Of a stretch of 64,000 nt of DNA, positions 27,508-30,748 are shown piece by piece. Under the pieces are notes generated by a model. The model was not told where the DNA came from. It saw only the letters and a program-made list of their open reading frames with translations, and did no database searches. The position numbers and the translations under genes were made by a program. The stretch's first letter is position 1, and each line of letters begins with the position of its first letter. This stretch comes from Mnemiopsis leidyi (taxonomy: Eukaryota), in NCBI GenBank assembly GCA_048537945.1, contig CM108484.1, positions 18,945,034 to 19,009,033 of the forward strand, read 5' to 3'.

Positions 27508-27771
27508 GACAAAATTGAAACGTAAAATAATGAATAAAACTACCCCATTCTTTTTTCAGCTTTCAACTTTAAATTTGTTCTTTAAGGTGAACTATTTTTA
27601 TGGCAATATTTTAATTTCAGAGCCAGCAACACGATATACCAGTTTCATGGCTGCTGGTGAGTTAATATATTAAGTTAAGGAATCAATTAATATGATTGTT
27701 CAGTAAAGATATCTAGAATATATGTTTTAAGTAAATCAAATATTGTAAATGCATGACGTGGTTAAATTTAG

Positions 27772-28415
27772 GTATCACGGATGCCCTACATGCAAACCAG
27801 ACAATCGTGACGTCAAGGTCGGAGGGAGGACACTTAATGAGAAATATAAGCAGACAGAAGAGACCAGCAAGTACCTACGTAGTCTCGGATATCAGCTTGT
27901 GGAGATGTGGGAGTGTTCCTGGTCTCAACACAAGAGAGATCACGTGCCCCATAACAGCTACGTCTACCCTACAGAATATCGGTATAGGATGTCACAAGAT
28001 CAGATCTTGTCCGCTATTTTAGATGGAAGGATTTTTGGTGCAGTTCAGTGTGATGTTCGAGTTCCTGAAAACCTCAAATCTCACTTTGGTGAGATGCCGC
28101 CGGTATTTAAAAATACCACTGTCACCGAGAATGATATTGGCGACCATATGACTGACTTTCTCAGTTCTACTGGGAAGTCTTTCAAACCCACCCGATATCT
28201 TATCGGGTCAATGTGGGGTGAAAAAATTTTAATGATTACCCCATTATTGACTTGGTATATTCAACACGGCCTTGAGGTGTCCAGAATTCATCAGATCATT
28301 GAATTTGCACCAAAAAACTGTTTCAAAGCGTTCGCTGATCGCGTGTCAAACGACCGTAGAGCTGGGGATACTGATCCGGCATTGAAAATCGTTGCTGAGA
28401 CCAGTAAATTAATTG
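27772..28415 (+). pseudogene. Orphan inverted copy of polB exon 5 in the right TIR
   Basis: Identical to rc(23174-23817). No upstream polB exons on this strand. Confidence 0.7.
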
Positions 28416-28559
28416 GTAAGTCTCGCAAAATCTTAAATTACTGGTTTTCTGTTTTGTTGATTATATTCGCGTTTTCGAAGTGTTGCTCAAGAAATGAAAG
28501 TAATGACGTCAAGGAACTAGCAACAAAAACATTCTTTTAACATAAGACTTGTATCCCAG

Positions 28560-28699
28560 GCAATTCATTTTACGGGTACAGCATCATGAACAAGTCTCGA
28601 CACGTGGATGTTAAGATTGTCGACGTGGAAGCGGCATCGGACCTTGTAAACAGTCCAAGATTTTCAACATTGGATGAACTGTCGGATACCTGCTTCGAG
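28560..28699 (+). pseudogene. Orphan inverted copy of polB exon 6 (motif B) in the right TIR
   Basis: Identical to rc(22890-23029). Confidence 0.7.
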
Positions 28700-30065
28700 G
28701 TAATTATAATTGTCGCAATGATTTCCAGTGTACCCTTGTTGAGCGATCTATTCAATAATTTGGGCAAGCAACTCATCTTGTACATTCTATCGACATCAAT
28801 TTCAGGTAACTTCTAAGAAGAAATCAATACGACACAATTTGCCAATACAGATTGGTTTCTTTGTATACTCCTATGCTAAGCTACGAATGTTAGCGTTTTA
28901 TTTTGACGTCCTTGTCCGATACATCCCTCGTCCTCTGTTTTCGTTATGTGAAATGGACACAGGTTTGTCAGATTACGATATTTTATTCAAATATGATGCG
29001 GAAAATAAAGAATTTGCTTAAAGTTGAAAAACGGTCTTCTTCTTCATTTTGCGTTTTTTGCGCGCGAAACGATTTATTGGAGTATAAAGCACATCACTTA
29101 CAAGCGCATTAGCGCGCCGCGCGCGCGCGGCTTTAGTTAACAACCTGCTCGGCTTTTTGACAATTTCTACGGTTCTACACCGTGTGACAGCCTTAGTGAC
29201 AGTCAAACGACGATAAATGCTATAAATTATCCACAGATTCACTGTACATGGCTCTGGCAGCGGAAACTCTGGACGAGTTAGTGACAAGTGACCTCAAATC
29301 GGAGTGGTTGGTAGCAAAAAGCCATTGGTTTCCCAGGTCTGATACAGCTGAGAATGCCGCCTATGATAAACGTACACCGGGTGAGTGTAATATGTAATAT
29401 GTCACATCTAATAATACTGATATTCAATCGCTTCCGTTCAAGTTAATGTATAATCTTGATTCTTTGTTTTCCGTCTGATACCGATTTAATGATCAAATAA
29501 CGGCACCATGATTATTCTATCAATGGAATAATGTATGATTATTTCCAGGTCTCTTTAAGATTGAGTGGAGCGGTGGCGGATTTGTTGGTCTTGCAGCGAA
29601 GACATACTTTTGTTTCAATCCCGACAACAGACAGAAAGAAAAGTGTTCCACTAAAGGGATAAACAAAGCCGCGAAAATCTCCATCGATCACTTCCGCTCC
29701 GTTTTACACACAAAACAAAGCGTGAGCTCGACGAACCGAGGATTCATACTCAAGGACAATAATATGTTGAGTTATGCGATGGAAAGAAGCGGGTTATCAT
29801 ATTTCTATTGCAAACGCAAGGTCCTTAACGACGGTATAAGCACTACATACTTAGATATTTAGCTTAAAATATTTTGCGTTTGTGTTGTTGTTATTGTATT
29901 GCTATTGTTAAGATACTGTTTAATAGTTTTCTTACTTTTATTGTGTTTTAAATTATTGTCGAAATATTATTTATATTGGAATAATGTAGATCTTGTAATT
30001 CAATTTGTGTCATTGTTCGAACTGTCGAATTGAATAGTGCAATGTACCTTGTGCTCAAAGGAAAA

Positions 30066-30093
30066 AATTTAAGCCGCGCGCGGCTTAAATTTG
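30066..30093. other. Perfect 28-bp hairpin palindrome in the right TIR (mirror of 21494-21523)
   Basis: Direct reading of the sequence. Confidence 0.9.
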
Positions 30094-30194
30094 ACCCAAA
30101 AGTGCTAACGTATCAAGCTCCTCGTGATATTCGTCACATGACATTCTGATCACGTTACCTCGAAATTGAGCCAACTGCTGAAGGTCTAAAGCTC

Positions 30195-30242
30195 TATATA
30201 AATCACGTGACAAAAGTCACGAGACACATCTTAGCCAATAAA
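30195..30242 (+). promoter_or_regulatory. TATATAAA box adjacent to a CACGTG E-box, followed by CCAATAAA, ~130-170 bp inside the TIR tip; mirrored in the left arm near 21345-21390
   Basis: Sequence motifs only. Could be an outward-reading promoter or the polyadenylation signal (AATAAA at 30237) of the polB transcript. Confidence 0.3.
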
Positions 30243-30748
30243 CGGCCTTAAATCCTCGTGACAGCGAGCGTAAAACCAATCAGATTGCTTTATTTTACCC
30301 CTTCTGACAAGTGTGCAGGATATATAGGCAATCGATGGTCAGAACGACAAACAATACTACTCCCGTACGGTATATTATTACGCGCAGGTGTCATCGGTGC
30401 GGCTCGCCGATCCGGGACGTCCGGTGACAAGCTGGTCAGCATATATGACCTCCATATCTGAAAGCAGGTTGGGGGCACTACGGAAAGCTTAGAAGCTTCC
30501 GTCCACTACTACTACTACTACTTACCCCAGTACGACAAGCAAAATCTAAACACATGTGAACGCAGTATAGAGTTGCAACTTGTCTAAGGCATTTCTCAAT
30601 TTCTTATCAGCGTGTGTACTTTTAATCACCTTATCTATATGAGATCATTTCATGTGCTCAATTTAGTGTCTATCGATTTGTGTGAATTTTTATATGACTT
30701 TTGATTACGTTTTAAGATTCCTAATAATTTTGCAATTTTGATACCGTT

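Follow-up and report, generated by a model that had tools for sequence, protein, structure and literature searches.

A likely defective Maverick/Polinton derivative of Mnemiopsis leidyi with the tail of its polymerase gene in both terminal inverted repeats

The self-synthesizing replication of Maverick/Polinton elements, with protein priming at the terminal inverted repeats (TIRs), strand displacement, and panhandle intermediates, is a hypothesis built on their gene content. We describe here a 9138-bp unit from the ctenophore Mnemiopsis leidyi (assembly GCA_048537945.1, contig CM108484.1), which very probably is a young, one-off, defective derivative of such an element (adintovirus-like) and which carries the last exons of its DNA polymerase gene (polB) in both arms of a long inverted repeat. 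The unit lies in a stretch of 64,000 nucleotides, referred to below as the window. The structural variant is new, and its kind, Maverick/Polinton, is already known. Our literature searches retrieved nothing linking Polintons to Mnemiopsis, and nothing linking copy-back or snap-back genomes to Polintons or Mavericks.

The described hallmarks of Mavericks are 5′-(AGT)2...(ACT)2-3′ ends with a perfect 6-bp target-site duplication (TSD), and the TIRs of intact vertebrate elements measure 46–1447 bp with a mean of 402 bp (PMC8097293). The unit in the window resembles these elements in its protein-primed polB, (AGT)2/(ACT)2 ends, perfect 6-bp TSD, and terminal inverted repeats, and differs in that it keeps polB only and in that its 2.8-kb TIRs are about twice as long as the largest vertebrate value (1447 bp) and contain coding exons. 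In regards to the vertebrate catalogue (Barreat & Katzourakis 2021, PMC8097293), the genes described here further differ in having introns, and the host is a ctenophore.

Copy-back defective viral genomes carry one terminus at both ends and are able to form panhandles (PMC13506859). The unit shares with them the same end at both termini in inverted orientation, an internal deletion, a homology-free breakpoint, and the retention of both replication origins. The copy-back and snap-back classes (PMC13506859) are products of virus replication, studied most in RNA viruses, and were seen as replicating molecules, whereas here we have the integrated product alone, from which replication is deduced. 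The snap-back subgenomic particles of adeno-associated virus (AAV; PMC8235507) are defective genomes of a DNA virus that arise by strand switching and keep, as an inverted duplicate, one end together with part of a gene; AAV replicates by rolling hairpin and not by protein priming, and these genomes are near-symmetric, in contrast to the 3.5-kb asymmetric core of the present unit.

The linear plasmids of fungal and plant mitochondria and of yeast cytoplasm that carry the gene of a protein-primed family-B polymerase (pPolB) have the same minimal layout of long TIR, pPolB, and long TIR. The open reading frames (ORFs) of some of these plasmids extend into the TIRs. They are extrachromosomal, have neither a TSD nor AGT/ACT ends of the integrase type, and in most cases possess an RNA polymerase gene as well, whereas the present element is known only as integrated DNA. 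Adenovirus also uses a protein-primed family-B polymerase, and incomplete adenovirus particles with genomes bearing long inverted terminal repetitions were reportedly described by Daniell in 1976 and by Daniell & Mullenbach in 1978. Mu killer of maize arose by the inverted duplication of part of MuDR and silences its family via hairpin RNA; it is likewise a natural inverted duplication of part of an essential transposon gene, in principle able to give a long hairpin transcript. Unlike in Mu killer, the remainder of the gene lies in the spacer here, together with the promoter, and the locus is known from its DNA sequence alone.

Anatomy, termini, parentage, and breakpoints as observed

All coordinates are positions in the window, and the sense of polB is the minus strand; the features are summarized in Table 1. 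The two arms were found by a repeat search, as three abutting blocks, and were then compared by global alignment. They were 99.9% identical over 2.8 kb, and the similarity collapsed at once outside them; a repeat of this length and identity cannot have originated by chance. Three differences separated the arms, namely two length differences of CG dinucleotides and one substitution. A preliminary description of this stretch had stated that the arms differ solely by 2-bp slippage, which is correct for the two (CG)n tracts but overlooked the substitution at 23984/27605. The geometry given there, with a left-arm gene tail that is continuous with the core and a mirrored orphan copy that points away from it, was borne out. 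The inner boundary of the arms lies in intron 4 of polB; 74 nt further along the gene comes a micro-exon of 36 nt (ASNTIYQFHGCW), followed by the YHGCPTC exon. The earlier placement of this boundary between the motif-A and YHGCPTC exons missed the intervening micro-exon; apart from this and the substitution, the earlier description was accurate. Exons 5–10 make up 1435 of the 3972 coding nt of polB (36%). The core encodes motif A (DANALY), and the arm encodes motif B (KLIGNSFYG), motif C (DTDS), and KxY.

The ends of the element read 5′-AGTAGTATTG...CAATACTACT-3′, with AGTAGT at 21224-21229 and ACTACT at 30356-30361. The 6-bp duplication that abuts them is perfect (chance match, 1 in 4096). 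Without the element, the target site would read ...GGTCTATTACCCGTACGGTATATT..., and no empty-site copy of it was found within the window. The arms, 2819 and 2815 nt long, fall outside the TIR range of intact vertebrate elements, and it is this feature that makes the copy unusual.

Corresponding ends were located in related loci, which are designated L001, L002, and so on. The right end of L001 reads ...GATACTACT at the position aligned with the window terminus, with ACTACT at 16059. L006 has AGTAGTATAC at 5745, followed by CACGTG boxes resembling those at the window terminus, and this site is therefore likely to be its left end. L009 has AGTAGTGAGAG at 5398, and its AGTAGT start is the point where the homology of three independent copies (L008, L009, and L010) begins. 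Downstream of polB, conservation with the right end of L001 (~65%) is confined to the subterminal ~290 nt of the window element; the extent of this region likely represents the canonical TIR size, and its putative function is that of replication and integration signals. The left-end regions of L005, L006, and L009 gave no alignment with the right end of L001 beyond short motifs.

Table 1. Positions of the features of the element, with the tRNA-like sequences of related loci in the last row (positions in those loci).
Feature	Position	Strand	Description
Whole element	21224..30361	-	9138 bp; very probably a defective Maverick/Polinton derivative
Left TSD	21218..21223		CCCGTA; abuts outer repeat end
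Right TSD	30362..30367		CCCGTA; abuts outer repeat end
Left arm	21224..24042	-	2819 nt; terminus, ~500 nt non-coding, polB exons 10 to 5, part of intron 4; runs on into core
Unique core	24043..27546	-	3504 nt; polB exons 1-4 and 527 nt upstream of ATG
Right arm	27547..30361	+	2815 nt; inverted copy of left arm with orphan polB exons 5-10
Subterminal region	21224..21512, mirrored 30075-30361		~290 nt; bounded by (CG)n tract, contains GTCACGTG boxes
(CG)n length difference 1	21503-21512 vs 30075-30082		left vs right arm
(CG)n length difference 2	22458-22471 vs 29118-29129		left vs right arm
Sole arm-to-arm substitution	23984 (C, + strand) vs counterpart 27605		intron 4; left arm has the L003/L004 state
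Inner junction (breakpoint)	27546..27547		joins intron 4 (parent position B), inverted, to the intergenic region upstream of polB (parent position A)
polB gene	21725..27019	-	10 GT-AG exons; open frame of 1323 aa, 3972 coding nt
polB exons 1-4 (core)	27019-25011, 24833-24745, 24644-24438, 24324-24093	-	
polB exons 5-10 (left arm)	23968-23933, 23817-23174, 23029-22890, 22783-22627, 22350-22207, 22038-21725	-	
Orphan polB exons 5-10 (right arm)	27621-27656, 27772-28415, 28560-28699, 28806-28962, 29237-29380, 29549-29862	+	identical to left-arm exons
tRNA-like sequences	L005 6070-6179, 6382-6455; L006 6244-6353; L009 5810-5900, 6074-6149; L012 ~2750-2840		

The parentage of the unit was established by comparison with sister copies. 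L003, a metagenome scaffold, was 99.6% identical to the window over 4648 nt (27547 down to 22900). Upstream of the breakpoint, where the window has the inverted arm, L003 carries a 227-aa gene on the other strand, and the same gene is found in L001 and L002, which matched the window with 71–83% identity between breakpoint and terminus and lost homology right at the inner junction. The homology of all three loci covers the core and ends at 27546. L001 and L002 contain one polB copy each and no long inverted repeat around it. Furthermore, the candidate left ends of L006 and L009 are followed by non-coding DNA, tRNA-like sequence, and genes of the capsid module, with no polB exons. Because L003, L001, and L002 lack the inverted tail and their homology ends at the junction, the long TIR, with the gene tail that it contains, is evidently specific to the window copy and not a maintained family architecture. 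The preliminary description had proposed that replication by strand displacement with hairpin or panhandle intermediates maintains this arrangement. The element does belong to a lineage thought to replicate by protein-primed strand displacement, and as an origin of the geometry such replication is reasonable, but a maintained architecture is unsupported, since L003, L001, and L002 have the 227-aa gene instead and the left ends of L006 and L009 are free of polB exons. Other copies with short TIRs and the gene entirely within the core, named there as the finding that would speak against the proposal, are largely what these five loci present.

On the minus strand, the inner junction reads ...AAAAAAGAA[T]GGGGTAG..., with a microhomology of 1 nt (the shared T), and the 31-mer across it (minus strand, 27562-27532) is AAGCTGAAAAAAGAATGGGGTAGTTTTATTC. 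Positions 1243 and 4748 of L003 both correspond to window base 27547. The parent thus contributed its polB-side terminal 6.3 kb to the 9138-bp unit (terminus, complete polB, and 527 nt upstream), and its last 2.8 kb occur there a second time as an inverted copy. Judging from L001, L002, and L009, this parent element was probably ~17 kb long.

The youth of the derivative is apparent from the same alignments. Compared with L003 and L004 (a JGI contig), both arms share a private 13-bp deletion and three single-nucleotide variants, and the arms are therefore copies of one molecule and not parts of two diverged elements. All three differences between the arms are derived in the right arm relative to L003 and L004: two are (CG)n contractions and one is a CpG-type transition. 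The window and L003 differ at 18 of 4648 nt, and 11 of these 18 fall in a 45-nt patch (26879-26923), leaving a divergence of ~0.15% elsewhere. The earlier view that the duplication is very recent is supported by the identity of the arms, the perfect TSD, and this low divergence. Since the insertion is young (intact TSD, ~0.15% from L003), the identity of the arms is explained without ongoing homogenisation, and the gene conversion invoked earlier is unnecessary. The 45-nt patch lies in the zinc-finger-like N-terminal region of polB, where the M. leidyi protein P0003 also differs from the window, and has the look of a short tract exchanged between sister copies by conversion or recombination.

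The polymerase gene and the capsid module of its relatives

Over its full length, polB was colinear, in a single high-scoring segment pair, with P0001 of M. leidyi (78% identity) and P0002 of Bolinopsis microptera (73% identity), and it was 98% identical to P0003 over residues 1–858. In an alignment of 26 homologues, D400/E402 of Exo I, D769..L773 Y774 of motif A, K1070/N1074/Y1077 of motif B, D1170-S1173 of motif C, and K1237/Y1239 were invariant, giving the patterns DxxxLY, KxxxNSxYG, DTDS, and KxY. The Pfam family PF03175 (DNA_pol_B_2) was matched by 9 of the 26 homologues. Pfam searches with the polB of the window, as single exon ORFs and as the spliced protein, gave no match, and neither did a PDB sequence search with the single window protein, so that the family assignment is based on the homologues and the motifs. 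By these, the polB product is evidently a protein-primed family-B polymerase.

When the 26-member polB profile was compared with PDB, a stretch encoded by the first arm exons, which reads FHGCWYHGCPTC...EMWECSW (aa ~845-910; 23968-23933 and 23817-~23620, mirrored at 27621-27656 and 27772-~27970) matched the Vsr very-short-patch-repair endonucleases 1vsr, 1cw0, and 1odg (E ~2e-5). A nuclease domain appears to be inserted between motifs A and B, and a 2024 PNAS paper reported diverse homing-endonuclease domains inserted in polinton pPolBs. Amphioxus, sea stars, sea cucumbers, acorn worms, and sea anemones have members of this polB family at 35–42% identity, which often bear C2H2 zinc fingers at the N terminus and are mostly annotated as uncharacterized host proteins. 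A domesticated host gene of the zinc-finger polB type of amphioxus, echinoderms, and cnidarians was set aside for the present copy because of its termini, its TSD, and the capsid-module neighbours in its sister copies. A 156-aa ORF of the left module of L002 (898-1368) resembled the N-terminal domain of polB (window 26692-26519; 33% identity over 58 aa, E=1e-5), with the common motif GFILRN...FHPSNN / YYYASQNN, and this likeness hints at a duplicated domain. P0003 corresponds to the NCBI M. leidyi entry ACHWQZ_G008128, in which residues 1–251 of the major capsid protein of the Maverick are fused to polB residues 1–858 and which ends exactly with micro-exon 5 (relative to window 27019-23933). 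It is evidently a chimeric gene model of a full-length sister element. In our look-up, no contigs encoding P0003 or P0001 were on record.

The related contigs encode an rve integrase (PF00665) beside the same polB. In L001 and L002, the integrase, a P-loop packaging ATPase, a protease, and a 434-aa capsid protein lie upstream of the single polB copy, and L006 has the same module at lower identity. The protease resembles that of adenovirus and matched PF00770 (Peptidase_C5) weakly, at E=6e-4, just under the cutoff; the A32/FtsK-like packaging ATPase gave weak P-loop Pfam matches. In regards to the 434-aa protein, its AlphaFold2 (AF2) model (predicted local distance difference test, pLDDT, 87) matched the double-jelly-roll (DJR) capsid proteins of PBCV-1, SGIV (iridovirus), Sputnik, mavirus, adomavirus, and adintovirus, and the modelled fold confirms it as a DJR major capsid protein (MCP). 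L001, L002, L005, L006, and L008-L013 were counted as full-length relatives with integrase, ATPase, protease, and DJR MCP. When the L002 ORFs of at least 100 aa (integrase, ATPase, capsid, protease, and neighbours) were searched by tblastn against the 64-kb window, no counterpart was found, and the sole match was a weak one inside polB; the capsid module, comprising the DJR MCP, the adenain-like protease, and the packaging ATPase, was not found in the window by this search. Since integrase is present in the relatives and missing from the window copy, the latter is a non-autonomous derivative and not an autonomous member. It has probably lost the integrase, ATPase, capsid, penton, and protease genes, and its moving and packaging would need these functions in trans.

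The strand of polB is opposite to that of the capsid module in some related Mavericks (L005 15187-20708, L009 15534-17577, and L012 1-1599), and the other orientation is found in L001, L002, L003, and L006. The protease gene and the polB 3′ end converge in L005 and L009, and in L012 polB lies upstream of the module and is divergent. The reversed polB of L009 is seemingly truncated near the same FHxxxWHGCP region. In several related Mavericks, the region from the left terminus to the first gene also contains tRNA-like sequences that are conserved and have a GGTTCGAATCC T-arm. Two of these were called as tRNAs by ARAGORN, with odd 4-nt anticodon loops.

Origin of the long inverted repeat

The origin that we tentatively place first, at somewhat less than even confidence, is a copy-back error. 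An extrachromosomal linear Maverick copy would have been in protein-primed, strand-displacing replication, with the polymerase starting at the polB-side terminus. After 6.3 kb or 2.8 kb, the polymerase would have switched template to the complementary strand, either nascent or displaced, and run back to the same terminus. Both ends of the resulting molecule would be functional, and its terminal inverted repeats would measure 2.8 kb. The integrase of a helper would then have inserted this molecule with a 6-bp duplication. The strand switch, the extrachromosomal phase, and the dependence on a helper are steps that we infer. The topology of the unit is that of a copy-back product: the same terminus stands at both ends, the other end is deleted, the breakpoint is homology-free (1 nt), and the repeat is capable of forming a panhandle. 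Moreover, the polymerase gene and its upstream (promoter) region are intact in the derivative. A further claim, that a copy-back defective-interfering genome of an animal Maverick survives at this locus as a germline fossil and gives direct sequence evidence of protein-primed, strand-displacing replication as free linear DNA, we consider quite unlikely.

Several points weigh against a copy-back origin. The derivative was seen only once, and its mobilisation as a unit is hypothetical. To our knowledge, the protein-primed replication of Mavericks has never been directly shown. None of the related loci retrieved contains both ends of one element, so that the canonical TIR length of the family is an estimate. 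Look-ups and scans for the junction and the terminus in other assemblies found neither. Scans of JGI metagenomes with the 22-nt terminus and the 24-nt inner arm end gave 0 matches each, in a set that did not include the sample of L004. A single ORF runs across the inner junction, and neither its GTG-start nor its ATG-start form matched anything on record; a scan of IMG/VR with polB exon 1 returned no relatives. Finally, a canonical element has TIRs at both ends, and the TSD and termini therefore fit an in-situ rearrangement equally well. The argument that the TSD proves integration as a unit was dropped for this reason, since the rearrangement of a canonical element in place leaves the same TSD.

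Such an in-situ expansion of the TIR, which we regard as somewhat unlikely, would begin with a full-length Maverick that was inserted with its TSD and later suffered an internal double-strand break. The broken integrase-side TIR would have invaded the inverted polB-side TIR, ~2.5 kb would have been copied inward, and end-joining upstream of polB would have deleted ~10 kb. This route predicts the TSD and termini that we observed, the 1-nt microhomology at the junction is typical of end-joining, and the derivative is a singleton in everything searched. The expansion of inverted repeats by repair is also known in plastid and poxvirus genomes, which counts in its favour. However, a single locus would have to undergo two rare steps in a very short span (one arm substitution, 0.15% from L003), and no remnant of the deleted 10 kb was seen.

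A distinctly improbable alternative is that the identical polB-side ends of two sibling linear copies were paired by the integrase and inserted together at one target, with their inner ends resected to 6.3 and 2.8 kb and end-joined. It accounts for the identical ends, the 6-bp TSD, and the homology-free internal junction, and because the ends are TIRs, the integrase would be blind to left and right. Hybrid-end and sister-element insertions are known for P and Ac/Ds elements and were counted for it. The private variants shared by both arms, including the 13-bp deletion, would nevertheless require the two molecules to be immediate siblings. Integrase autointegration was rejected, as it yields circles or inversions and not a linear unit with two identical ends.

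A standing family architecture, kept uniform by panhandle or hairpin intermediates or by gene conversion, is hardly credible: the 99.9% identity of the arms and the membership of the element in a protein-primed replicon lineage would suit it, but L003, L001, and L002 have a different gene upstream of polB, the left ends of L006 and L009 have no polB exons, published Maverick TIRs are at most 1.4 kb long, and youth alone explains the identity. Least credible of all is an assembly artefact, be it a misjoin induced by a repeat or a long read that is chimeric or folded back. Although inverted duplications are a known class of artefact, a fold-back gives a symmetric palindrome without spacer or with an adapter spacer and here the spacer is 3504 nt long and non-palindromic, the single nucleotide shared at the inner junction excludes a misjoin through a repeat, three arm differences are resolved, and the outer ends coincide with Maverick termini and a TSD.

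Genomic surroundings and biological meaning

The Maverick insertion lies in a repeat-rich stretch. A 2.4-kb array of a 22-nt minisatellite with a strong C-over-G skew (18365-20735) lies ~490 bp from the insertion site, and to the left of this array, ORFs on the plus strand (15853-16974) resembled the endonuclease tail of a retroelement by eye and had no Pfam match. To the right, an ORF of 795 aa on the minus strand (32033-34420) encodes a reverse transcriptase (Pfam RVT_1, E=3e-25) and fits a retroelement of the non-LTR (long terminal repeat) type. A 288-bp sequence right of the Maverick (30749-31036) has an inverted copy, 95–98% identical, ~15 kb to the left (14096-14201 and 15627-15816). The left copy is split by a 1.43-kb insert (14199-15629), which is a palindrome of 9-nt minisatellite arrays with 343-nt arms that are 99% identical. 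The inverted pair may represent TIRs that belong to an older or larger element, or else a small repeat that is present twice.

In regards to annotation, the orphan exons of the right arm can seed false gene models. In P0003, the model of a sister copy, capsid exons are already joined to those of polB, and the model terminates at exon 5. Were transcripts reading through from the flank to cross both arms, a hairpin RNA of up to ~2.8 kb against the polB tail could feed the small-RNA silencing of the family. Should the copy-back origin be true, the locus would be a rare piece of structural evidence for the protein-primed replication of Mavericks, and we suggest the genome-wide counting and mapping of such derivatives as a cheap test of the replication mode. 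The germline-fossil reading would also mean that a polB-only mini-replicon, consisting of a long TIR, polB with its promoter, and a second long TIR, can be made in one step and integrated by a helper. Linear pPolB plasmids are thought to descend from Polintons, and a capsid-less, integrase-less, polB-only unit with long TIRs that arises in one step would bear on this proposed descent.

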